From Bacilli bacterium (GTDB taxonomy: Bacteria > Bacillota_I > Bacilli_A > ML615J-28 > CAG-313), in contig JAFVWY010000009.1 in NCBI GenBank assembly GCA_017501465.1, positions 115,092 to 179,091 of the forward strand: 64,000 nt of DNA, written 5' to 3'. This document shows, piece after piece, positions 2,597 to 50,839 of the stretch. The notes beneath the pieces are model-generated. The model saw only the letters and a list, made by a program, of their open reading frames with translations, was not told where the DNA came from and did no database searches. The translations under genes were made by a program, and so were the position numbers. Positions within the stretch are counted from its first letter, which is position 1; every line of letters starts with the position of its first letter.

Positions 2597-3157
2597 ATGT
2601 TATTAGATTTATTCATCACTTTCTTTAAACTAGGACTATTTACTTTTGGTGGTGGATATGCAATGATATCTAATATTAAAGAAATAATCGTAGAAAAGAA
2701 ACAATGGATAACTGAAGATGAACTAATAGAAATGATTACAATAGCTGAGTCTACTCCAGGGCCAATTGCTATTAATATGGCAACTTATGTTGGTTATCAT
2801 AAAGCCAAAATCCTAGGCAGTATTCTATCAACTTTAGGTGTAGTTTTACCATCATTTATAATAATATTTATTATTTCTTTATTTCTAGAACAATTTATGA
2901 CAATTAAATATGTTCAATATGCTTTCTATGGAATTAATGCATGTGTATCATTTTTAATTTGTCGAACAGGTTTTAACTTAGTTAAAAAAATTGAAAAGAA
3001 AAAACTACCAATTATTACTTTTATAATTGTATTTACCCTTTTAATGTTATTTGAAATTTTATCAATTTCATTCTCATCAATATTATTTATTATTTTTGGA
3101 GGATTACTAGGTATTATATACTACGGTGTAATTACTGGAAAAGGAGGATCAAAATAA
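2597..3157 (+). CDS. chrA: chromate transporter ChrA family, N-terminal half-size paralog
   Basis: FGGGYAMI, ESTPGPIAINMATYVG motifs. Paired with the adjacent half-size paralog. Confidence 0.75.
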   Translation: MLLDLFITFFKLGLFTFGGGYAMISNIKEIIVEKKQWITEDELIEMITIAESTPGPIAINMATYVGYHKAKILGSILSTLGVVLPSFIIIFIISLFLEQFMTIKYVQYAFYGINACVSFLICRTGFNLVKKIEKKKLPIITFIIVFTLLMLFEILSISFSSILFIIFGGLLGIIYYGVITGKGGSK

Positions 3158-3729
3158 TGATTTATTTAGAATTATTTTTTGAATTCTTTAAAATTGGTCT
3201 ATTCACATTTGGTGGTGGATTTGCAATGATACCTTTAGTAAAAGATTTAGTAGTAACAAAAGGTTGGCTTGGTGTTGAAGAATTTACTAACCTTATTGGT
3301 GTATGTGAATCTACGCCAGGTCCAATTGCTATTAATATGGCTACATATGTTGGTTCAATACAAGCAGGATTTTTTGGTAGTGTTTGTGCAACTATTGGTG
3401 TTGTTTTACCATCAGTTATTATAATAATTTTAATTGCTGCAATTTTGAAAAACCTAACTACAAATATTTATTTTAGATCATTTATAAAAGGGGTTAAACC
3501 AATTATTTCAGCTCTTATTTTATCAACAGGTCTAATTTTACTTGCAAAATGTTTTGGCTATGAAAATATACATACTATATCATTTAAAATTGTGCCAATA
3601 ATAGTATTTGCAATTATTGCTTTAGTATATTTTTTAAGCACAAAAGTTTTAAAGAAGAAAGTGTCTTCAATTCAATTAATTATTTTATCAGCAATCTTAG
3701 GTATTGGTATATCTTTAATAATGGAGTAA
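3157..3729 (+). CDS. chrA: chromate transporter ChrA family, second half-size paralog
   Basis: FGGGFAMIPL, CESTPGPIAINMATYVG motifs. Its start is coupled to the stop of the upstream half (ATAATG). Confidence 0.75.
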   Translation: MIYLELFFEFFKIGLFTFGGGFAMIPLVKDLVVTKGWLGVEEFTNLIGVCESTPGPIAINMATYVGSIQAGFFGSVCATIGVVLPSVIIIILIAAILKNLTTNIYFRSFIKGVKPIISALILSTGLILLAKCFGYENIHTISFKIVPIIVFAIIALVYFLSTKVLKKKVSSIQLIILSAILGIGISLIME

Positions 3730-3732
3730 AAA

Positions 3733-4545
3733 ATGGAAATCATTAAATACAATAATGGAATTGATTTTTATAATGATAATTTAGAAATATTAAATACACA
3801 TTTAATTGAAACTGCTTTCTTTAAATTGAATTACCCATTTATAAATACTTATGAAAAAGAAAATTACGCAATAAAAATAAAAGATAAAGACAAATATTTA
3901 ATTGCTCTTCAAAGAACACCTTATAATTTATTAATATTTGGTAATCATTTACTAACAAAGAATTTAGTTGAAATAATTAAAAAAGATGATTTAAAAGTAA
4001 ATGGTATTTTAACTAATAAATTAATAAGTAACGAATTCTTAAAAGAAGCTTCTAGATCATTTGACGGATTCTTTACTCTTAGAAATGATATGAGTATTTT
4101 AACTTGTAATAAATTTAATCAATTAAATCATTCATATGAAATATTAACTCCAACTGAACTTGATTTAAATGAATTAAAAGAATTACATGAACTATTTCAT
4201 GAAGAAATCTATCATGAAAAAGCTACTTATGAAATTGATGATATTTTACCTGATTTAAACAGCTATCAAATAATAAAACTAGACAATAAAATTGTTTCAA
4301 TGGTTAAAAAAGTTAGAGATGAGTTAACAATTTGTAGTATTTCTTTTGTATATACTAGAATTAATTATCGTTCTAAAGGGCTTGCAAGAATTTTAGTAAC
4401 TAATCTAACTAATGAAATAGTTTCTAATAATAAAACAGCATATTTATTTGTAGATAACTTAAATCCTATTTCTAACCATTTATATACTTCAATTGGATAT
4501 TGTTTAAAAGAAGAAAGAATTGAATATATTTATAATAAAAAATAA
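3733..4545 (+). CDS. hypothetical protein with C-terminal GNAT acetyltransferase-like domain
   Basis: C-terminal RINYRSKGLARILVTNL resembles the GNAT motif A region. The N-terminal 150 aa have no recognised motif. Confidence 0.45.
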   Translation: MEIIKYNNGIDFYNDNLEILNTHLIETAFFKLNYPFINTYEKENYAIKIKDKDKYLIALQRTPYNLLIFGNHLLTKNLVEIIKKDDLKVNGILTNKLISNEFLKEASRSFDGFFTLRNDMSILTCNKFNQLNHSYEILTPTELDLNELKELHELFHEEIYHEKATYEIDDILPDLNSYQIIKLDNKIVSMVKKVRDELTICSISFVYTRINYRSKGLARILVTNLTNEIVSNNKTAYLFVDNLNPISNHLYTSIGYCLKEERIEYIYNKK

Positions 4546-4627: not shown

Positions 4628-5824
4628 ATGAATTTTTTAAAAAAAATATATTGTCGTACATTTCAATTTTGTTTTAAGATAGCATACCCTTTTTTACCAT
4701 ATAAAGAACCCGTGATATTAAATAGTTTAAAAGAACTTTGTTTAAATATCAAAGAACACAACTATCAAAATGTCTTATTAATTACTGATAAAGGTATTAG
4801 ATGCCATGGTATTACCAAACCCTTAGAAGAAGAATTAAAAAACAATGATATTAATTGTATTGTCTTTGATGAAACGGTTGCTAATCCAACTACTTTGAAT
4901 GTAAGTACTGCGAAAGATTTATACATAAAAAATCAATGTCAATGTTTAATTGCTTTTGGTGGTGGATCTGCAATGGATTGTACAAAGGCTGTTGGGGCTT
5001 TAATTGCAAGACCAAATAAAAGTTTAGATAAACTTAAAGGGTTATTAAAGATTAGAAAGAAAACTCCGTTAATTTATGCTATACCTACTACTGCTGGTAC
5101 TGGTAGCGAGGTTACAATTGCTAGTGTTATAACTAATGAAGTAACACATCATAAATATACTTTAATGGATTTTAATTTAATTCCTAGTTGTGCAGTACTT
5201 GATCCTAGCGTTACTTACAGTTTGCCAAAACACTTAACTGCAACAACTGGTATGGATGCTTTAACTCATGCAATTGAAGCATATATTGGTAAGAGTAATA
5301 CTAAATACACAAGAAAAGTAGCGATTGATGCTATTAGATTAATCTTGGATAATATTGAAGTAGCTTATAATGAACCGAATAATTATGAAGCTAGAAAAAA
5401 CATGTTATATGCATCATATTTAGCAGGCATTGCTTTTACTAGATCTTATGTTGGTTATGTTCATGCCATAGCTCATTCCTTAGGGGGACAATATAATTTA
5501 CCACATGGACTTTTAAATGCAATAATTCTACCTAAAGTATTAAAAGTATATGATAAAAGTATTTATAAACAAATTCATAAATTATGTGTAATGTTAAATA
5601 TATCTAAGAAAAATGATTTAAAGCATGACAGTTTTAATAAGTTTATTAATAAAATTATACAATTAAATCATAACTTAGGTATTAAAGATCATATAGAAGA
5701 AATAAATACTAACGATATTTTGTTAATGGCAACTCATGCAGATAAAGAAGCTAATCCATTATATCCAGTGCCTAAACTGATGGATAAAAAGGAACTCATG
5801 AAAATATATCGAATATTAAAATAA
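4628..5824 (+). CDS. iron-containing alcohol dehydrogenase
   Basis: GGGSAMDCTKAV and GMDALTHAIEAY Fe-ADH signatures. A TTGACT-17-TATAAT promoter lies upstream. Confidence 0.8.
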   Translation: MNFLKKIYCRTFQFCFKIAYPFLPYKEPVILNSLKELCLNIKEHNYQNVLLITDKGIRCHGITKPLEEELKNNDINCIVFDETVANPTTLNVSTAKDLYIKNQCQCLIAFGGGSAMDCTKAVGALIARPNKSLDKLKGLLKIRKKTPLIYAIPTTAGTGSEVTIASVITNEVTHHKYTLMDFNLIPSCAVLDPSVTYSLPKHLTATTGMDALTHAIEAYIGKSNTKYTRKVAIDAIRLILDNIEVAYNEPNNYEARKNMLYASYLAGIAFTRSYVGYVHAIAHSLGGQYNLPHGLLNAIILPKVLKVYDKSIYKQIHKLCVMLNISKKNDLKHDSFNKFINKIIQLNHNLGIKDHIEEINTNDILLMATHADKEANPLYPVPKLMDKKELMKIYRILK

Positions 5825-5827
5825 AAA

Positions 5828-5856
5828 TAGGACAAAAATTTGTCCTATTTTTTTCT
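5828..5856. terminator. bidirectional terminator between the ADH (+) and the XRE regulator (-)
   Basis: taggacaaaaatttgtccta hairpin with T-runs on both sides. Confidence 0.6.
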
Positions 5857-6462
5857 TCTTATTAAGATGATAAAAAATATAAAAGCCATTACTTGAAGAG
5901 GAATACAAACGATATAGATTAAATAAATTTTATTAACTACATTTAATAAAGATAAATGAATTGATAATGCACAAGTCCATAATAAAACAGATGTAGTTGC
6001 AAATCTTGTATATTTGTTCCCCCACATACTAGCATATACTAAAAGTACAATGCTAGATACTGGCAAAGCATATATAAATGATAACCAAATTTTTAAATTT
6101 GGATGATTATCTTTTAAGATGCCAAGGATTAAGCAAACAATAGTTGCCACAAGCCAAACAATGCCTAGCGATAAACTAACAATAGAAAAGACTGTTCTTT
6201 TGCTTTTTCCTTTCTCCATTTTTTTAGGAATAAAATTAGTATCTTCATTTAGTAGTTGATCTACAGTAATTCCAAATAAATCTGCCATTTGTTTTAAAGT
6301 TATAACATCTGGTATTGATTCAGCTCTTTCCCACTTAGATAATGTCTTATCTGAGTAACTTAATTTATCAGCAAGTTCTAATTGTGTTAGTCCTAATTCT
6401 TTGCGATATTTAATTATATTTTTTGAAATTGTTTCTTTTAATTCTTCGTAATTGTTTTCCAT
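5845..6462 (-). CDS. membrane-anchored XRE-family HTH transcriptional regulator
   Basis: N-terminal LGLTQLELADKLSYSDKTLSKWERAESIP helix-turn-helix, followed by about four TM helices. Confidence 0.7.
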   Translation of the reverse strand: MENNYEELKETISKNIIKYRKELGLTQLELADKLSYSDKTLSKWERAESIPDVITLKQMADLFGITVDQLLNEDTNFIPKKMEKGKSKRTVFSIVSLSLGIVWLVATIVCLILGILKDNHPNLKIWLSFIYALPVSSIVLLVYASMWGNKYTRFATTSVLLWTCALSIHLSLLNVVNKIYLIYIVCIPLQVMAFIFFIILIRRKK

Positions 6463-16642: not shown

Positions 16643-16748
16643 TTAATTAAGCCTTCGGGCTTAATTTTTTTAAATTTTAAAGTTTGACATTAATTACTTG
16701 ATAAAATATTCAAAAAGTGGTATCATATGTAAGAAAGAGGTAATTAGC

Positions 16749-19262
16749 ATGTTTAAAAAATTATTTGATTCAGGATATAAAGAACTAAAGAAATGTGAAA
16801 AACTTGCAGATAAAGTTTTAGCTTTAGAATCTAAATATCGTGAAATGACTGACGATGAATTAAAGAATAAAACTATTGAGTTTAAAGAAAGACTAAGTAA
16901 AGGTGAAACTCTAGATGATATTTTAGTAGAAGCTTTCGCAACCTCACGTGAAGCTGCATATAGAGTATTAGGTTTACTAGCATTTAAAGTTCAAATTATT
17001 GGTGCGGCAACAATGCATTATGGTAATATTGCCGAAATGAAAACTGGTGAAGGTAAAACATTAACTTCAGTTTTAGTTGCTTATCTTAATGCTTTATCAG
17101 GTAAGGGTGTTCATATCGTTACTGTTAATGAATACTTAGCTCATCGTGATGCTACTGAAATGGGTATGGTTCATAAATTCTTAGGTTTAACTGTCGGGTT
17201 AAATGTTAGAGAACTTACTAAAGAAGAAAAGAAAGAAGCATACAATTGTGATATTACTTACTCTACTAATAATGAATTAGGGTTTGACTACTTAAGAGAC
17301 CACATGGTAGTAAGACTTGAAGATATGGTACAAAGAGAATTAAATTTTGCCATCGTCGATGAAGTTGACTCTATTTTAATTGATGAAGCAAGAACACCTT
17401 TAATCATCTCTGGTGGTGCAAAGGGTGGACCAAATTTATATGAATCTGCTAATACTTTTGTTAGAAGTCTTCGTGAAGATGAATATGAAAAAGATGTTAA
17501 GTCTAAACACGTTACTTTAACAGAAAAAGGTATGGAGAGAGCTCAAAATTACTTTAGAATTGATAACTTATATGATGTTCAATATGTAACATTAGTACAT
17601 AGAATTAATAATGCCTTAAAAGCAAATTATGGAATGGATCGCGATGTTGACTATGTTGTTCAAGATAATACAGTTATTATCGTTGACCCATTTACAGGTC
17701 GTTTAATGCATGGAAGACAATTTAGCGAAGGATTACATCAAGCATTAGAAGCTAAAGAAAGAGTAGAAATTAAGAAAGAAACTAGAACATTAGCAACAAT
17801 TACATTCCAAAATTATTTTAGACTTTATAATAAACTTGCTGGGATGACAGGTACTGCTAAAACAGAAGAAGAAGAATTTAGAAATATTTATAATATGTTT
17901 GTAGTTGAAATTCCAACTAATGTTCCAGTTGTTAGAATTGATGATAATGATAGAATTTTCCAAACTATGAAGGGAAAATACAATGCACTAGCTAAAGATA
18001 TTGCTGAAAGACATAAAAAAGGTCAACCAGTTTTAGTTGGTACAATTTCAATTGAATCAAGTGAATTATTATCAGAATTACTTAGAAAACGTGGTATTCC
18101 ACATAAGGTTTTAAATGCTAAACAACATGAAAGAGAAGCAGAAATTGTTGCTCATGCTGGTGAAATTGGTGCAGTTACCATTGCAACAAATATGGCAGGT
18201 CGTGGTACCGATATTAAACTTGGTGAAGGTGTTGTTGAGCTTGGCGGTCTTGCTGTTATTGGTACTGAACGTCATGAGTCACGTCGTATTGATAATCAGT
18301 TAAGAGGTCGTAGTGGACGTCAAGGAGACCCAGGATATAGCTGTTTTTACTTATCATGTGAAGATGATTTACTAGTAAGATTTGGTAGTGATAGATTTAA
18401 AACAATTGTAAAACTTGGTACTAGCGGTGAAGTTGATGAAGAAGGTAATGAATTACCACTTACAATGAAGATTATGAGTAATTTTATTGAAGGTGCTCAA
18501 AAAAGAGTTGAAGGTGCTAACTACGACAGACGTAAAAATGTCGTTGAATATGATGAAGTATTAAGATTACAAAGAGAAGTTATTTATCAACAAAGACATG
18601 ATATTTTAACAATGGATGATATGGAACCAGTAATTGTTAAAATGATGAAAAGTGTGGTAGAAAGATCTGTTAACAAATTTGTAGTTTACGAAGGTAAAAA
18701 AGAATCATTTGATACAGAAAGATTCTATAAAGAATTTGTTCAACTATATTTTAATGCTGAAAGCTTTGAATATGATGCTTTTGATGAGTTAAAAACAGAT
18801 GAAATTAAAGAGAAAATCTATAATAAGTTTATCAGTAACCTAGAAGATAAAAAGAATACTTTACCTGCTGAGGTTGTTCAAGAATTTATGAAAGTAATTC
18901 TATTAAAAGTTGTTGATAGATACTGGATGAATCATATTGACCAAATGAGTAGTCTAAGACAAAGTATTGGCTTAAAATCATATTCTCAAGAAAACCCACT
19001 TAGAGAATATCGTGAAATAGGTTTCCAAATGTTCGATGAAATGATTATGCATATTGAAAATGATGTTGTAATCAATATTAATAGAGCACAAATTAGGGAT
19101 AACTTAGAAAGAGAACAAGTAGCAAAACCAACAGGAACAAGTGGTGGTGGAAGTGAAGAAACTCTTAAGAGAAAACCAGTAACTTCAAATAAAAAACCTG
19201 GTAGAAATGAACCATGTCCTTGTGGTAGTGGTAAAAAATATAAAAACTGTTGTGGGAAGTAG
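16749..19262 (+). CDS. secA: preprotein translocase ATPase SecA
   Basis: MFKKLFDSGYKELKK start after AAGAGG. Walker A GEGKT. DEVDSILIDEARTPLIISG. C-terminal zinc finger CPCGSGKKYKNCCG. Confidence 0.95.
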   Translation: MFKKLFDSGYKELKKCEKLADKVLALESKYREMTDDELKNKTIEFKERLSKGETLDDILVEAFATSREAAYRVLGLLAFKVQIIGAATMHYGNIAEMKTGEGKTLTSVLVAYLNALSGKGVHIVTVNEYLAHRDATEMGMVHKFLGLTVGLNVRELTKEEKKEAYNCDITYSTNNELGFDYLRDHMVVRLEDMVQRELNFAIVDEVDSILIDEARTPLIISGGAKGGPNLYESANTFVRSLREDEYEKDVKSKHVTLTEKGMERAQNYFRIDNLYDVQYVTLVHRINNALKANYGMDRDVDYVVQDNTVIIVDPFTGRLMHGRQFSEGLHQALEAKERVEIKKETRTLATITFQNYFRLYNKLAGMTGTAKTEEEEFRNIYNMFVVEIPTNVPVVRIDDNDRIFQTMKGKYNALAKDIAERHKKGQPVLVGTISIESSELLSELLRKRGIPHKVLNAKQHEREAEIVAHAGEIGAVTIATNMAGRGTDIKLGEGVVELGGLAVIGTERHESRRIDNQLRGRSGRQGDPGYSCFYLSCEDDLLVRFGSDRFKTIVKLGTSGEVDEEGNELPLTMKIMSNFIEGAQKRVEGANYDRRKNVVEYDEVLRLQREVIYQQRHDILTMDDMEPVIVKMMKSVVERSVNKFVVYEGKKESFDTERFYKEFVQLYFNAESFEYDAFDELKTDEIKEKIYNKFISNLEDKKNTLPAEVVQEFMKVILLKVVDRYWMNHIDQMSSLRQSIGLKSYSQENPLREYREIGFQMFDEMIMHIENDVVININRAQIRDNLEREQVAKPTGTSGGGSEETLKRKPVTSNKKPGRNEPCPCGSGKKYKNCCGK

Positions 19263-23889: not shown

Positions 23890-24522
23890 ATGTATATGAA
23901 AAAAAGAAAAGTAACAACAGCGTGGGAAGTTCAAGTAGCAATCCTTTCTGCACTTGCCATTATTTTATACAATTTTCCTAAGTTTCAACTTCCGTTTTTT
24001 CCTGGTATGTTAAGTGTGCAATTTTCTATGTTACCTACTATTATTGGTGGTTTTGCTTTAGGTCCAGTTGGCGGAATCTATATTGTATTAATTAAGTTTA
24101 TTTTTAAATTACTAACAACAAGATCAGCTGGGGTTGGAGAATTTGTTGATTTAATTATAGGAGTTTGTGTAGTACTTGTTACTTCACTAATTTATAAATA
24201 TATTAAAAGTAAAAAAGGAGCCATTATTGCCTTAATTATGGGATCTATTACTTGGGTAGTAGTTGCGGTTATTTTAAACTGGCTTTGGGCAATACCATTT
24301 TATTGTAATACTTTTGGTATGGATAAAGTAATTGGTATGATAATGGTAATACCTGGCGTTAATGAAAGCAATTATATGAGTAAATATTTATTATTTGGAT
24401 GTTTACCATTTAATCTTATGTTAGCAAGTGTAGTAAGTATAGTCACATATATTATATATAAAAGAGTTTCTTGGTTATTTGAGAAAATGACTAATAAAAT
24501 AGAAAAGAAAAATAGAGTTTAA
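23890..24522 (+). CDS. ribU: riboflavin transporter RibU (ECF S-component)
   Basis: Sits downstream of the FMN riboswitch. About six TM helices, 210 aa. LPTIIGGFALGPVGG segment typical of RibU/YpaA. Confidence 0.75.
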   Translation: MYMKKRKVTTAWEVQVAILSALAIILYNFPKFQLPFFPGMLSVQFSMLPTIIGGFALGPVGGIYIVLIKFIFKLLTTRSAGVGEFVDLIIGVCVVLVTSLIYKYIKSKKGAIIALIMGSITWVVVAVILNWLWAIPFYCNTFGMDKVIGMIMVIPGVNESNYMSKYLLFGCLPFNLMLASVVSIVTYIIYKRVSWLFEKMTNKIEKKNRV

Positions 24523-33302: not shown

Positions 33303-34286
33303 ATGGGTTTATTTTCAATCTTTAAAAAGAAAAAAAGTCAAGATAATAAAGCTTTGGAAAAAGCTAATAAATATAAATTAGGTATGGCTAAGACTAGAAA
33401 TGGTCTTATGAATAAGTTAAAAGGTTTATTTACAAGTTATAATGAAGTTACAGAAGATTTATTTGATGATCTTACTGATATCTTCATTATGGCAGATATT
33501 GGTGTGGAAACAACTCTGGATTTCATTGAAGAATTAAAAGAAGATGAAAGAGTAGAAGATGTTACTACTCCTGAAGAATTACATCCAATAATAGTTGATA
33601 AGATGTTTGAGCTTTATTTAAAAAATGAAATTGTTGATACGTCTCTTAACATAAAAGAAGATGATTTAAGTGTTTTATTATTTGTTGGTGTTAATGGTGT
33701 TGGAAAAACAACAACAATTGCTAAAATTGCTCATCGCTTAGTAGAAGAAGGCAAAAAGGTTTTACTTGCTGCTGGGGACACTTTTAGAGCTGGAGCAATT
33801 GATCAATTAAAAGTTTGGGGAGAACGCTTAGGCCTTAATGTTGTCTGTAAGGCTGAAGGTAGCGATCCTTCTAGTGTAATTTTTGATGCAATACAAATTG
33901 CAAAAGAAGAAAAATATGATGTTCTTTTATGTGATACTGCCGGAAGACTACAAAATAAAACTAATCTAATGGCAGAACTTGAAAAAATGAATCGTGTAAT
34001 CAAGAAAGAAATTCCTGATGGTCCACATGAGACTTTACTAGTTATTGATGCTACAACTGGCCAAAATGGGTTATCCCAAGCAGAAGCATTTAAAGAAATT
34101 ACTGATGTTACAGGGGTAGTTCTAACTAAACTTGATGGCACTAGTAAAGGCGGTATTGTTTTAGCAATTCGTGATAAATATAATCTACCTATTAAATTTG
34201 TTGGTCTTGGTGAAAAAATGGAAGACTTAGAATACTTTGATTTAGAAGATTATATATATGGATTATTTGGAGACGACGATGAATAA
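33303..34286 (+). CDS. ftsY: signal recognition particle receptor FtsY
   Basis: GVNGVGKTTTIAKIA P-loop. DTAGR. SRP-GTPase NG domain. Confidence 0.9.
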   Translation: MGLFSIFKKKKSQDNKALEKANKYKLGMAKTRNGLMNKLKGLFTSYNEVTEDLFDDLTDIFIMADIGVETTLDFIEELKEDERVEDVTTPEELHPIIVDKMFELYLKNEIVDTSLNIKEDDLSVLLFVGVNGVGKTTTIAKIAHRLVEEGKKVLLAAGDTFRAGAIDQLKVWGERLGLNVVCKAEGSDPSSVIFDAIQIAKEEKYDVLLCDTAGRLQNKTNLMAELEKMNRVIKKEIPDGPHETLLVIDATTGQNGLSQAEAFKEITDVTGVVLTKLDGTSKGGIVLAIRDKYNLPIKFVGLGEKMEDLEYFDLEDYIYGLFGDDDE

Positions 34287-34598: not shown

Positions 34599-36005
34599 AT
34601 GCCTTTTGAAAGTTTATCAGAGCGTTTAGGAATGGCCCTTAGAAGATTAACGGGTCGAGGAAGAATAAACGAAAATGATATCGATGAAATGATGAAAGAA
34701 GTTAGGGTTTCATTGCTTGAGGCCGATGTTAACTATAAAGTAGTTAAAGCTTTCATCAAAGATGTAAAAGAAAAATCTTTAGGCGAACGTGTAATGAAAT
34801 CACTTACTCCTGGAGATCAAGTATTAAAAATAGTAGATGAAGAATTAAAAATGTTAATGGGTGAAGAAGCTACGCCTATTAATATGAATCCAAATGGTAC
34901 AACAGTTATTTTACTTGCTGGTCTTCAAGGTAGTGGTAAAACAACACATGCTGGTAAATTAGCATCTTATCTTAGAAAGCATTATAATTCTAAACCTTTA
35001 TTAGTTGCAGCTGATATTTACAGACCAGCTGCTGTTAATCAATTAGTTACTCTTGGTAAACAACTAAATATTGATGTTTATGAACAAGGTACCTCAAAAA
35101 AACCTGAGGATATTGTTAAGGAAGCTTTAGCTTATGCTAAAGCCAAAAGTAACAACGTTGTGATTATTGATACTGCTGGTCGTTTATCAATTGATGAAGC
35201 TTTGATGCAAGAGTTAGTTAATATTAAAAACATTGCCAAACCTCATGAAATCTTACTTGCAGTTGATGCAATGACTGGTCAAGATGCTGTGAATGTTGCT
35301 ATTCAGTTTAATAATGCTTTAAGTGTTACTGGTTGTATTTTAACCAAATTAGATAGTGACACAAGAGGTGGGGCTGCTTTGTCAATTAGATACATGACAA
35401 ACATTCCAATTAAGTTCTGTGGTATGGGAGAAAAATTAGATCAAATTGAAGTATTCCATCCTGATAGAATGGCAAGTAGAATTCTTGGTATGGGGGATGT
35501 GTTAACCTTAATTGATAAAGCAACTGAAAATATTGATGAAACTGAAGCTATGAATATTGCGGAAAGATTACAAAAAGGTTACTTTAATTATTATGATTTT
35601 TTAAAACAACTGAAGATGATTAAAAGGATGGGTTCTTTAAAAGGAATCTTAAGTTTATTACCAGGCATGGGTAAACAATTAAAAAATATTGATATAGATG
35701 ATAAAAAATTTGTTTATATTGAATCAATCATTGGATCAATGACTAATGAAGAAAGAAAAAATCCAGAACTTGTTAATACAAGTCGTTCAAGAAAAGAACG
35801 TATCGCAAAAGGTTCTGGTAGAAGTTATCCTGAAGTTAACAATCTTACTCAACAATTTGAAACTATGAAAAAACAAATGAAACAAATGATGGGTTTATCA
35901 GAAGATGAAATGGAAAAAATGTCGAAAGGTCAATATGTTCCTAATATGCCTAAACAAAAAGCTAAAAAAGGTAAAGGCAAGAATAAAGGAGGATTTAGAT
36001 TCTAG
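34599..36005 (+). CDS. ffh: signal recognition particle protein Ffh (SRP54)
   Basis: GLQGSGKTT P-loop. NG domain. Methionine-rich M domain. Basic C-terminus. Confidence 0.95.
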   Translation: MPFESLSERLGMALRRLTGRGRINENDIDEMMKEVRVSLLEADVNYKVVKAFIKDVKEKSLGERVMKSLTPGDQVLKIVDEELKMLMGEEATPINMNPNGTTVILLAGLQGSGKTTHAGKLASYLRKHYNSKPLLVAADIYRPAAVNQLVTLGKQLNIDVYEQGTSKKPEDIVKEALAYAKAKSNNVVIIDTAGRLSIDEALMQELVNIKNIAKPHEILLAVDAMTGQDAVNVAIQFNNALSVTGCILTKLDSDTRGGAALSIRYMTNIPIKFCGMGEKLDQIEVFHPDRMASRILGMGDVLTLIDKATENIDETEAMNIAERLQKGYFNYYDFLKQLKMIKRMGSLKGILSLLPGMGKQLKNIDIDDKKFVYIESIIGSMTNEERKNPELVNTSRSRKERIAKGSGRSYPEVNNLTQQFETMKKQMKQMMGLSEDEMEKMSKGQYVPNMPKQKAKKGKGKNKGGFRF

Positions 36006-36412
36006 TGAGTAATGATCGTTGGTATAAACGCTTGGGTTGGTTCTTATTATTTTCTTGTATTACTTTATTAATATTTTTTGTTTTAGATTATGCTTTTAAC
36101 GCATTTACAGAAAAATATACATCAACAAGATTTACTGCATTTTATGTTGAAGCTGAATATAAATATAAAGAAAGCGACACCATTGTTTTAACTTTGGATA
36201 CAGATGCAACAAGTTTTACTGTTGATTTATGGATTGATGAAGAAAATACTGGACTTACTTTTGAAAATGAAAAAACCATTTCATTTAAACTTAGCGAATT
36301 AAGTATAGATTTAGAACCAGGAACTTACACTGTGAAGTCTTCAGTGTTTGGTAAAAAAGGATTAAGTAGGGAAAGAGAAGTATTAATTACTACTACTTTA
36401 ATAATTGAATAA
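36005..36412 (+). CDS. hypothetical membrane-anchored protein
   Basis: GTG start overlaps the ffh stop. One N-terminal TM helix. No motif. It occupies the rpsP position found in Bacillus. Confidence 0.35.
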   Translation: MSNDRWYKRLGWFLLFSCITLLIFFVLDYAFNAFTEKYTSTRFTAFYVEAEYKYKESDTIVLTLDTDATSFTVDLWIDEENTGLTFENEKTISFKLSELSIDLEPGTYTVKSSVFGKKGLSREREVLITTTLIIE

Positions 36413-37453: not shown

Positions 37454-37467
37454 AAAAAAAGACTAGG

Positions 37468-38352
37468 TTATTTACCTAGTCTTTTATTTACATTATAAAA
37501 ATAATTAATATCATCTATATTATCATATATATTAATTGAATGATCAACATACTCTAAATATTCTAAAATGTTAATATTTTTTGTTTTGACAATAAGTTTA
37601 TCTTTATCTTCAATTATTTTTTTGAAAACTTTAATTTTATTAGTATTAAAGTAAATCTCTTCAAAATCCAAATAATTTATATCCCCATCATAATTATTAA
37701 TTAAAATAATACCTTTATTAATATCTAAATTTAATAAATACTCATTAATACTAATTGAATCTATAGAAATGATTGAATCGGTTGTATTTTCTAAAGAAGA
37801 TACTTTATATGTCTTATCAATTATTTTTTTATCAAATAATTCATTAGTAATTTTTAAATATTCATCGAAGTTTTTTAAGTTATTAATTTTATTTGTGTTA
37901 TTAAAAGGTTTATTTGTTACAATAAAACGTGATGCATAAATAGTATCATGAGGTGGGATTTTCGAAAAGTGGGCGTATTTTGGTAAATAGTAATAATCAT
38001 AAATATAACGATATAATTCTTCTTCTGTTATATTTTCTTTAGCAACACTTAATAAATAATCAATAAAATCATCATTTAAATAAGCTTTTAATTTTTTTAA
38101 ATATGAACGTTCTTGTTTTTCTTTTCTTGTTAGTTTAACTGGATAATATCTTCTTTTTGCGAATGCATTACATCTTAAGATTCTAAAACCCACTAATATA
38201 GTTGCATAAAAGAAATTAAACTTTTTATAAGTTTCTAAGGCATAGTCAGAACAAGTTGGGTAAAATTTGCAATGTCCTACACCTATTAAAGATTTATTTT
38301 TTTGATATGATTTTATTAATTTAACTGCAAACTTATTTTTACATTTATGCAT
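37468..38352 (-). CDS. yidD: YidD (membrane protein insertion efficiency factor) domain fused to ~220-aa C-terminal extension
   Basis: GHCKFYPTCSDYALETYKKFNFFYATILVGFRILRCNAF matches the YidD hallmark. Followed by an Asn/Ile/Asp-rich domain of unknown function. Start placed at the ATG after GGTGA. The track start is TTG with no RBS. Confidence 0.55.
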   Translation of the reverse strand: MHKCKNKFAVKLIKSYQKNKSLIGVGHCKFYPTCSDYALETYKKFNFFYATILVGFRILRCNAFAKRRYYPVKLTRKEKQERSYLKKLKAYLNDDFIDYLLSVAKENITEEELYRYIYDYYYLPKYAHFSKIPPHDTIYASRFIVTNKPFNNTNKINNLKNFDEYLKITNELFDKKIIDKTYKVSSLENTTDSIISIDSISINEYLLNLDINKGIILINNYDGDINYLDFEEIYFNTNKIKVFKKIIEDKDKLIVKTKNINILEYLEYVDHSINIYDNIDDINYFYNVNKRLGK

Positions 38353-38421
38353 AACATCACCATTTTTAATTATCTCAAAAAAGATAGTATAAATCAAGAA
38401 TTTAAGTTAAAAATATTACTG

Positions 38422-38961
38422 ATGAATACTTTAATAATAATTACCTTAATACTTTTATTGATATATTATATTTTTTCTTTAAAGATTACTCTATATTTAA
38501 ATAAAGATGAAAAACTTCATATTTGGTTTAAAATAGGCAAAATTTTTAGATTTAGAGTCAATGAATCAAAACTTATTAAAAAACTGTTAGATGATATTAA
38601 TCTAAAAGATATATCGAAAATACAATATGATAGTTTCATGATTAATAATCTTTTAAAATATATTACTGTAGAAAAAATCACCGTTATTGAAAAATCTAAT
38701 ATTTTAAGTGATACTTGGAATATTTATTCAAGTTTTATTTTAAACTATATGAATAGTTATCTTCATAGTTTACTAAATCAACATTTTTATAAAGTAAATG
38801 ATGTGTATTATTCTATTAGTTATGATACAGTAGGATCGTTTGGTATTTATTTTGAATTAGTATTAAGTCTTAAAATAACTAAATTACTAAAGTATTTAAT
38901 AAGGAGGAAAAGATATAATGAACAAAGAAACGAGCGAAATTATAAAAGATTCATTAAATGA
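38422..38961 (+). CDS. YtfI-like (DUF2953) sporulation-associated membrane protein
   Basis: N-terminal TM helix, then a K/I-rich body as in DUF2953. Immediately upstream of and overlapping ytfJ, as in the Bacillus ytfI-ytfJ operon. Confidence 0.4.
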   Translation: MNTLIIITLILLLIYYIFSLKITLYLNKDEKLHIWFKIGKIFRFRVNESKLIKKLLDDINLKDISKIQYDSFMINNLLKYITVEKITVIEKSNILSDTWNIYSSFILNYMNSYLHSLLNQHFYKVNDVYYSISYDTVGSFGIYFELVLSLKITKLLKYLIRRKRYNEQRNERNYKRFIK

Positions 38962-39295
38962 GGTAAAAAGTTTAATTGATGTTAATGTTGTGATTGGGAA
39001 GCCAATGTTTTTAGATGAAGCATTAGTAGTACCTATCTCAAAAGTAAAGTGTGCATATATTAGTGGAGGAATCGATCAAAAAAAAGAAAACTATAAAGGT
39101 AATATGCCTCAATCTAGTTTATTAGCTTCTAACCAAACAATCACTCCGGTTGGGTTTTTAGTTAAAGAAAAAGATAGTGTAAAAGTATTACACTTAGAAA
39201 ATGATGTACATATTTTAGAATATATTTTAGATTCTGGTATTGATGTTATTAAGACATTTATCGATTTATTTAAAAAGAAAGAAAAACCTGAATAA
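38918..39295 (+). CDS. ytfJ: sporulation protein YtfJ/GerW family
   Basis: VIGKPMFLDEALVVPISKVKCAYISGGIDQKK and TPVGFLVKEKDSVKVLHLEND match the YtfJ/GerW core. Confidence 0.65.
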   Translation: MNKETSEIIKDSLNEVKSLIDVNVVIGKPMFLDEALVVPISKVKCAYISGGIDQKKENYKGNMPQSSLLASNQTITPVGFLVKEKDSVKVLHLENDVHILEYILDSGIDVIKTFIDLFKKKEKPE

Positions 39296-49831: not shown

Positions 49832-49840
49832 GTGAATATT

Positions 49841-50839
49841 ATGGAAAAACAATATGGTCAAATCATTATATATAAGACACCTGATGGCAACACAAAATTA
49901 GAAGTTAAATTTTATGAAGATACTGTTTGGTTATCACAAGAACAACTTGTAGAACTTTACGGGTCTAGTAAATCCAATATTAGTGAACATATTAAACACA
50001 TATTTGAAGAAGGTGAACTAGATGAAAATTCAACTGTTCGGAATTTCCGAACAGTTGCTAGTAACGGAAGAACATATAATATAAAGTATTATAATCTAAA
50101 AATGATTATTGCTATTGGATATAGAGTTAGAAGTAATATCGGAACAAATTTTAGAAAATGGGCTACAACAACTTTAGAAGAATATATAGTTAAAGGATTT
50201 TCTATAAACGATGATTTACTAAAACGTGCAGGTGGCGGAAGATATTTTAAAGAACTACTTGCAAGAATAAGAGATATTAGATCTAGCGAAAGAGTGTTTT
50301 GGCGACAAGTTCTGGATATATTTGCAACATCAATAGATTATGATCCTAAACTTGAATTATCACAAGAGTTTTTTAAAACTGTACAAAACAAAATGCACTG
50401 GGCAACTCATGGTCATACTGCTGCTGAGATAATAGTAGAAAGAGCAAATGCTAAAAGAGATTTTATGGGTTTGACTTCATTTGATGGGGATTACCCAACA
50501 AAAGAAGATGCTGAAATTGCTAAAAACTATTTATCAAAAGATGAACTTGATACACTAAATAGAATTGTTTCATTATATTTAGATTTTGATGAACTTATGG
50601 CAAAAGAAGAAAAGCCAATGACGATGAAGGATTGGATAAAACAGCTTGATTATTTTCTAAAAATGAGTAGAAAAGATATATTGACTGGAAGTGGAACTAT
50701 ATCACATATTAAAGCATTAGAACATGCTAGAAAAGAATATAATGATTTTAGTAAGAGAATTTTAACAAATCCAACTGAAAATGAAAAATTATATTTTGAT
50801 AAATTACAACAGTTAATGTTAATAGATAAAAAAGAATAG
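49841..50839 (+). CDS. RhuM-family (virulence protein RhuM-like) protein
   Basis: IIIYKTPDGNTKLEVKFYEDTVWLSQEQLVELYG and KYYNLKMIIAIGYRVRSNIGTNFRKWATTTLEEYIVKGF match the RhuM family N-terminal and central core. AGGTGA RBS before ATG 49841. Starts 10 nt after the upstream stop. Confidence 0.7.
   Translation: MEKQYGQIIIYKTPDGNTKLEVKFYEDTVWLSQEQLVELYGSSKSNISEHIKHIFEEGELDENSTVRNFRTVASNGRTYNIKYYNLKMIIAIGYRVRSNIGTNFRKWATTTLEEYIVKGFSINDDLLKRAGGGRYFKELLARIRDIRSSERVFWRQVLDIFATSIDYDPKLELSQEFFKTVQNKMHWATHGHTAAEIIVERANAKRDFMGLTSFDGDYPTKEDAEIAKNYLSKDELDTLNRIVSLYLDFDELMAKEEKPMTMKDWIKQLDYFLKMSRKDILTGSGTISHIKALEHARKEYNDFSKRILTNPTENEKLYFDKLQQLMLIDKKE

Follow-up and report, generated by a model that had tools for sequence, protein, structure and literature searches.

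We describe a long form of the membrane protein insertion efficiency factor YidD, encoded in the 64,000-nucleotide stretch of DNA analysed here (hereafter the window), in which an intact YidD domain is joined by a linker to a two-lobed tail; the latter probably descends, with loss of catalytic activity, from a module comprising an N-terminal domain and a kinase. A chain of profile comparisons, the fold, the insertion point and synteny make the descent of the tail from this module the probable one. The protein belongs to a clade of YidD fusions that is newly defined here, and whose members form a graded series from versions with an intact kinase to those with a dead remnant. Neither the YidD fusions nor the free-standing form of the module appear to have been described, and nothing relevant to them was found in the literature. 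The product is identical to GenBank MBR2891313.1, whose annotation as a plain YidD ('membrane protein insertion efficiency factor YidD [Bacilli bacterium]') is corrected by these findings: YidD accounts for only a quarter of the chain. Since the find extends no further than uncultured gut Bacilli, we regard it as a moderate lead and not a major one.

The preliminary description of this DNA had placed a YidD gene in the minus-strand reading frame at 37468-38352, with an unusual C-terminal extension of about 220 aa behind the YidD core. Both points are borne out, the core by matches to PF01809 and TIGR00278 and the extension by the length of the product, 294 aa, as against the short forms. The gene and its associated signals are:

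37468..38352, minus strand: coding sequence of the long yidD, 294 aa plus stop codon, with the ATG at 38352
38357..38361, minus strand: Shine-Dalgarno-like GGTGA, evident in the sequence itself and separated from the downstream ATG by 4 nt
38369..38397, minus strand: weak sigma-70-like promoter match (TTGATT, 17-nt spacer, TG-GATAAT) in the divergent intergenic region
37457..37485, no single strand: bidirectional intrinsic-terminator-like hairpin with a 12-bp stem and T runs on both strands

The mechanical listing of open reading frames starts this gene at a TTG (37468..38397, minus strand, 309 aa), in place of which the preliminary description had favored the internal ATG preceded by GGTGA. 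We concur that the ATG at 38352, which yields the 294-aa product, is the true start, because of the GGTGA upstream of it, the use of the same start in the public gene calls of three independent contigs, and the N-termini of the homologues, which align at this codon. The -35 hexamer of the promoter-like match begins with this TTG; as the number of such matches in this region is not above that expected from shuffled sequence, the promoter is to be taken as a candidate only. Terminator-like sites number two, as against 0.1 expected from shuffled sequences, and the hairpin listed above lies between the long yidD and the convergent asnA, covering the stop codon of the former. The G+C content of the 64-kb window is 27.9%, and the long yidD is the only YidD-like sequence found in it.

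YidD is nearly universal in bacteria, with counterparts such as E. coli YidD and B. subtilis YtjA, and is usually about 70-85 aa in size; its molecular role is poorly defined. For the E. coli protein a role in membrane insertion has been reported (Yu et al. 2011, as cited in PMC8082313 and PMC3573977). The parts of the window protein, of which the first two comprise the YidD domain and its linker and the others the tail, are:

38137..38334, minus strand: YidD domain, aa 7-72, delimited by the PF01809 match, with the cysteines C28, C34 and C61
38077..38136, minus strand: charged helical linker, aa 73-92, KLTRKEKQERSYLKKLKAYL, delimited by alignments and helical in the models
37723..38076, minus strand: helical/beta lobe, about aa 93-210 (boundary approximate), putative remnant of the N-terminal domain of the module
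37471..37722, minus strand: alpha/beta lobe, about aa 211-294 (boundary approximate), putative remnant of a P-loop kinase domain

The YidD domain is canonical. It is recovered by PF01809 with an E-value of 5.8e-17 (61.7 bits, cutoff 27) and by the equivalog model TIGR00278 with 52.9 bits against a cutoff of 40, and is thus above both curated cutoffs. It retains the core motifs FYPTCS-YA and RILRCN, in agreement with the family core CxF(Y)xPTCSxYA ... R(I/L)xRC(N/H)P, and its three cysteines, along with the flanking core residues, are invariant in a 25-sequence alignment of relatives. The protein departs from the rest of the YidD family in bearing a folded C-terminal addition of 220 aa, and its gene in having neither rnpA nor yidC beside it in this window. 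The linker motif PV(K/P)L(T/S)KKEK is shared with other long YidD proteins; as PVPLTKKEK it also terminates the short YidDs in metagenome-assembled genomes of Acholeplasmatales and Anaeroplasmataceae.

Given the usual size of YidD, and lengths of 54-118 aa for the 78 short forms at the fetched loci, nearly all of which fall between 68 and 103 aa, one might suppose that a short yidD has been artificially joined to an unrelated gene downstream of it by a frameshift, an assembly error or stop-codon readthrough. The preliminary description itself had named a frameshift or sequencing error as the chief danger to its reading. We find such an artefact to be wholly improbable, and the frameshift or sequencing error in particular to be excluded. 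The identical protein is present on at least 20 public contigs from several samples, and all the fetched copies of the gene, which come from independent assemblies of different samples, are identical in DNA. Moreover, the search for long YidD forms proposed in the preliminary description, together with their alignment, recovered 43 full-length homologous clusters with the same uninterrupted architecture (281-304 aa; 97-99% of the length aligned at 40-71% identity). The junction lacks an internal start or ribosome-binding site, the linker motif is continuous with the C-terminus of YidD, and the structural model packs as a single chain (pTM 0.80). The long yidD is hence one genuine gene encoding one polypeptide with a conserved architecture.

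The tail had been characterized in the preliminary description as a low-complexity segment rich in N, I, D and Y and devoid of motifs. The first part of this stands: N, I, D, Y and K are over-represented in the tail, and its mean local entropy (3.05 bits versus 3.30 +/- 0.09) is the lowest when the 55 window ORFs with 150 aa or more are compared. The second does not, as the alignments of the family reveal invariant and near-invariant positions in the tail and the modelling returns a confident fold. As all the fetched copies of the gene are identical at the DNA level, constraint was judged by relative protein divergence. Between the organism of the window and that of locus L006, identity amounts to 62-90% for housekeeping proteins, to 67% for the YidD domain and to 41% for the tail (220 aa compared, E-value 6e-38). 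By this comparison of sequences, the tail evolves faster than the other parts, yet is clearly constrained. AlphaFold2 models the full-length protein with a pLDDT of 88.3 and a pTM of 0.80, and the tail alone with a pLDDT of 91.6 and a pTM of 0.85. In these models the conserved tail is folded as a two-lobed domain, with the helical linker leading into a lobe of helices and a hairpin, followed by an alpha/beta lobe. The first of these lobes carries the motifs LYxYIYDYYYLP, SRF and FxEYLKIxxEL; its assignment as the counterpart of the N-terminal domain of the module derives from the modelled secondary structure, the bridge alignment and the chain of hhalign comparisons detailed below.

Direct searches place the tail in no known family. 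No Pfam family is matched even at E-values up to 10, nor is any NCBIfam model. An exhaustive profile search with the tail against 1.84 billion representatives recovered its own family alone, with 6 representatives, which indicates that the tail in its window form is confined to a small lineage. A Foldseek search of PDB produced no match (best E-value 0.43). The similarity of the fold to known structures is remote and extends over less than half of the tail, and scores of 5-7 are attained by many Rossmann-like proteins. An alternative is that the tail is a lineage-specific element without kinase ancestry, arising either as an AT-driven extension or through the capture of an unrelated Rossmann-like domain, with its likeness to P-loop kinases being attributable to the commonness of three-layer alpha/beta sandwiches. 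We consider this explanation unlikely, even as it is the alternative to which we accord the most weight; the relatives of the window protein and the profile chain that connects them point to descent from the module instead.

The key to the ancestry of the tail is a set of longer YidD proteins. In two of these (P0044 and P0045; 447-450 aa), the YidD domain is followed by a match to PF00485 (the PRK/uridine kinase family) with an intact Walker A motif, GPSGGGKT, while a third long YidD protein (P0046; 407 aa) has a damaged version of the same motif. The YidD domains of the former two are 63-65% identical to that of the window protein, as against at most 59% for the ordinary short YidDs among the fetched loci. 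In the YidD-kinase fusions (P0044, P0045 and P0048-P0050; 446-450 aa), the linker and the point at which the module is inserted are the same as in the window protein. These fusions differ in retaining the Walker A, DDFF, GGN and EGVYS motifs, all of which are missing from the window protein, which is about 155 aa shorter. A search seeded with P0044 recovered more than 970 matches, the majority being free-standing proteins of about 355 aa from Clostridia, which cover the non-YidD part of the query. Members of this free-standing family (P0051-P0164) are annotated as 'hypothetical protein' or 'uridine kinase'. Their kinase half has relatives in PRK06547/PRK07667 and in PDB 1rz3, the latter scoring best among PDB sequences against the intact family (E-value 6e-16). 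The kinase half displays the motifs AIDGxSxSGKTTL, DDFFL, GGNxxYERF, IIEGVYSxHP and EWIPxExxYF, and is preceded by an N-terminal domain of about 170 aa with the motifs YPxMxxxDxxKLIYQxEFGxGH, IGNGxxR and SHSxxYxxxYxPxYR. The order of elements in the free-standing module is colinear with that of the window tail, to which it is connected by a transitive profile link. Unlike the window protein, the Clostridia versions have no YidD domain, are catalytically equipped, and are usually coupled to a gene for an ECF S component. The S-component gene is directly upstream of the module gene, or overlaps it, in 3 of the 4 contexts examined, and its product gives a sub-threshold match to the folate family. 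No paper combining ECF transporters, their S components and uridine kinases was found in the literature.

A search seeded with the 321-aa fusion of locus L012 revealed further groups of long YidD proteins, comprising proteins of 302-314 aa, 311-314 aa, 321 aa and 244-252 aa, along with a single protein of 353 aa. The proteins of 244-252 aa, which are also represented at locus L024, end right behind the N-terminal domain. Among the matches listed from a profile scan of genome contigs with the full-length alignment, which are largely ordinary short yidD genes, L012 and L024 are the fusion loci. A domain already known to be fused to YidD was the other finding by which the preliminary description held that its reading could be overturned. 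On this count, YidD and the module are indeed joined in one small clade of uncultured Bacilli, with a Pfam name being available for the kinase half of the module only; as that name holds only in the intact relatives, the tail matches a known YidD-fused domain in just a weak sense.

We compared the tail and the module using the tail only, with the linker removed. A linker-inclusive match with an E-value of 1e-5 was discounted, because the linker is also found in short YidDs. Compared directly, the tail of the window family and the intact family show no significant relationship (hhalign E-values of 0.08-0.09, region by region and in local and global modes), and the HMM-to-sequence scores of the tail lie inside the range of shuffled decoys, except against L012. 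The decayed groups supply the connection. The 302-314-aa group matches the intact family with an E-value of 9.4e-12 over 163 columns extending through the P-loop (hhalign), and also matches the 353-aa, 321-aa and 311-314-aa forms (5e-17, 2e-7 and 1.5e-4, respectively). The window family in turn matches any single decayed group only weakly (P of 2e-3 to 4e-3), and attains significance only after the intermediate groups are pooled: against the pooled decayed groups the E-value is 2.6e-6 over 143 columns, and when it is combined with the 311-314-aa group and compared with the other decayed groups, it is 3.5e-5 over 169 colinear columns spanning the whole tail. The controls are clean: the observed scores of 46.0 and 39.1 compare with 13 +/- 2.3 (maximum 19) for 40 column-shuffled targets, and reversed targets give 0.4-0.6.

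A MAFFT bridge alignment of all the forms is likewise colinear over the whole length. In the N-terminal domain, it places LYRYIYDYYYLP opposite KLIYQxEFGxGH, YASRF opposite IGNGxxR and FDEYLKITNELF opposite FExKLxxLxxxC of the module, with nothing in the window tail matching the SHS...YR motif. In the kinase domain, GIILINNYDG, which spans the first strand and the Walker A region, lies opposite IIAIDGxSxSGKT, KLIVKTKNINILEYL opposite IIIIEGVYSMHPLL, and HSINIYDNID opposite YDLxIFxDID.

The same alignments reveal the extent of the decay. The intact family has as its invariants the Walker A motif GxxxxGK[ST], the DDFF strand, the GGN lid, the EG(V)YS motif and the C-terminal W-P-E helices, and every one of these is missing or replaced in all members of the window family. 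The Walker A position of the window protein reads GIILINNYDGDIN, and a GK[ST] signature is found at that position in no member of its family. Consistent with these losses, neither PF00485 nor any other P-loop model is matched at E-values up to 10, the NCBIfam kinase models give no match to the full protein, and in the modelled alpha/beta lobe the first strand runs directly into the next, with neither the P-loop nor the helix that follows it. As the kinase invariants are all absent, the tail is best described as a pseudo-kinase remnant combined with a partly eroded N-terminal domain. By analogy only, this is reminiscent of pseudo-kinases in general, in which the kinase fold is kept under selection after the loss of the nucleotide-binding motif.

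An active tail could also be envisaged, in which it is still an enzyme or binds nucleotides at a non-canonical site, making the protein a bifunctional YidD-kinase like its 450-aa relatives. The maintenance of the fold under purifying constraint is compatible with this, as is the conservation in the former catalytic region of N219 (in NN), N274 (in SIN), and Y286 and N289 (in INYFY). Set against these residues, the loss or replacement of the entire complement of kinase invariants throughout the window family, the missing helix after the P-loop in the model and the failure of all P-loop models to match render such an activity very improbable. We therefore return to the catalytically dead descendant of the module as the preferred interpretation, in which the tail might function as a non-catalytic pseudo-kinase scaffold or as a domain binding a ligand or partner.

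Genomic context adds a further thread to this interpretation. The long yidD is separated by an intergenic region of 69 bp from a divergently transcribed pair of genes:

38422..38961, plus strand: 179-aa predicted membrane protein in the 'ytfI' position, as delimited by public gene calls
38918..39295, plus strand: YtfJ/GerW-family protein of 125 aa (PF09579), overlapping the upstream gene

The preliminary description had read these as the sporulation-associated ytfI-ytfJ pair, and for the second gene the family assignment is upheld. Its product matches PF09579 with 46.9 bits against a cutoff of 25, and the equivalog model TIGR02874 with 60.4 bits, below the cutoff of 116.3; by these profile matches it is a member of the YtfJ family that is not shown by the equivalog to be the orthologue of B. 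subtilis YtfJ. According to a preprint, YtfJ/GerW is a widely conserved sporulation gene (bioRxiv 10.1101/2022.02.25.481979). The first gene product, whether in its 204-aa or its 179-aa version, matches no Pfam family at E-values up to 1 and no meaningful NCBIfam model, and the 'ytfI' label thus denotes position only. It has a homologue in the same position beside an intact-kinase fusion (L004; 29% identity, E-value 1.6e-8).

The divergent pair of a membrane-protein gene and ytfJ recurs across the subtypes of the fusion, namely beside the intact form (L004), the 321-aa form (L012), a 303-aa form (L092), a 311-aa form (L093) and a form with only the N-terminal domain (L095), with the opposite flank differing at each of these loci. 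For the YidD-kinase fusion P0045 (L004/L005), the one locus examined shows the ytfI-like/ytfJ pair in the same divergent arrangement as in the window. The pair is absent at two relatives (L006 and L024), and a tblastn search with the window YtfJ at E-values up to 1e-4 detected it beside none of the short yidD genes obtained from other genomes. Its retention at the fusion subtypes, along with its absence beside these short yidDs, therefore identifies it as an ancestral conserved feature of the fusion clade. The arrangement suggests that expression of the long yidD may be coordinated with that of the divergent membrane-protein gene and ytfJ via the 69-bp region.

Taken together, these observations allow us to posit the following scenario. 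The ancestor would have been the free-standing module of about 355 aa seen in Clostridia, with its N-terminal domain of about 170 aa and a uridine-kinase-like P-loop domain. That the module gene usually overlaps the end of an ECF S-component gene suggests a membrane-located kinase for an imported compound. Fusion of the module behind YidD is likely to have taken place in a clade of uncultured low-GC gut Bacilli, and if the ancestral kinase did act on a compound imported by the ECF system, the fusion may originally have held the kinase at the membrane. Within this clade, the module appears to have decayed to differing degrees, giving rise to forms with an intact P-loop (447-450 aa), those with a degenerate P-loop (302-407 aa), and those retaining the N-terminal domain only (about 248 aa). 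The window form (281-304 aa) would have lost the Walker A motif, the helix next to it, the lid and the C-terminal helices, while the core of the beta-sheet and part of the N-terminal domain probably persist. The YidD domain, for its part, would still act at the membrane, as a peripheral helper in the YidC/Sec-dependent insertion of membrane proteins. The clade would thereby be a natural case of a kinase that became a pseudo-enzyme while joined to a second domain. Two leads for further investigation also emerge: the module of N-terminal domain and kinase, which is ECF-coupled in Clostridia, as a candidate functional partner for YidD, and the conserved divergent pair of a membrane protein and YtfJ/GerW.

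A more speculative extension, to which we attach only a slim chance, is to read the fusion as a 'Rosetta stone', such that YidD acts physically with the membrane-proximal module, the divergent membrane protein and YtfJ, either as a tether or adaptor or as a cysteine sensor. Were this true, the decayed tail would survive by still binding a partner or ligand, and YidD, rather than being only a general insertion helper, would be a tether that puts cytosolic enzymes beside membrane machinery. A separate fusion, of YidD with a peroxiredoxin (P0223), was also observed, and would be in keeping with the three conserved cysteines having a thiol-based role.

In the Clostridia, the gene for the free-standing ~355-aa protein, which combines the N-terminal domain with a P-loop kinase, has an ECF-transporter S-component gene directly upstream, with the stop and start codons overlapping or abutting at the three loci:

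L008: 4472-5008, ECF S-component gene; 5001-6068, ~355-aa protein gene
L011: 4442-4999, ECF S-component gene; 5001-6074, ~355-aa protein gene
L096: 2484-3008, ECF S-component gene; 3001-4056, ~355-aa protein gene

Judged by this gene arrangement, the Clostridial S component and the kinase protein look like an uncharacterised import-and-phosphorylate pair. The sole match of this S component to a substrate family was to the folate family and was sub-threshold. An ECF-transporter S-component gene is also found in the window (23890-24522, + strand; PF12822, E 3e-25), 13 kb from the long yidD.

The linker of the YidD fusions, for its part, extends beyond the fusions themselves. Short YidDs of 82-100 aa from Acholeplasmatales/Anaeroplasmataceae MAGs bear a C-terminal GYDPVPLTKEEK followed by a short charged tail (loci L013, L014, L018, L019, L033 and L065), whereas the Clostridial YidDs stop at GGYDPVK. 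This difference indicates that the linker is a lineage trait, present also in the absence of any fused domain. A different fusion occurs outside the window in P0223 (229 aa), where the YidD domain is followed by an AhpC/TSA-Redoxin (peroxiredoxin) domain, assigned from precomputed PF08534 and PF00578 matches; it hints that the three conserved cysteines of YidD may have a thiol-redox role.

On the far side of ytfJ, the gene for an HI0933-like flavoprotein comes next in four of five relatives (L004, L012, L092 and L093), and in all of these except L012 it is followed by an unannotated gene for a ~330-aa protein and by acetate kinase. The fifth relative, L095, retains the flavoprotein gene, but a gene for a metallo-beta-lactamase-fold protein separates it from ytfJ. 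The window has rpmB-fakA-recG in place of this flavoprotein block, so the ytfJ-distal side was rearranged in its lineage. At the other end of the long yidD, a hairpin with a perfect 12-bp stem and T-runs on both strands (37457-37485) lies between this gene and the convergent asnA, covering the last four codons of yidD together with the stop; it is likely to be a bidirectional terminator for the two genes.

Pfam matches place three further genes no more than 21 kb from the long yidD:

16698-19262, secA
33303-34286, ftsY
34599-36005, ffh

The three probably lie close by because this is the usual gene order in Firmicutes, not because they form a functional cluster. Between ffh and asnA lies an ORF of 135 aa (36005-36412, + strand) whose N-terminus is hydrophobic and for which there is no significant Pfam match; in L006, one of the relatives, the slot after ffh instead holds a 733-aa transglutaminase-core protein. 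The window also codes for a RhuM-family 'virulence protein' (49832-50839, + strand; PF13310, E 2e-106), a family frequent on mobile islands or prophage remnants.
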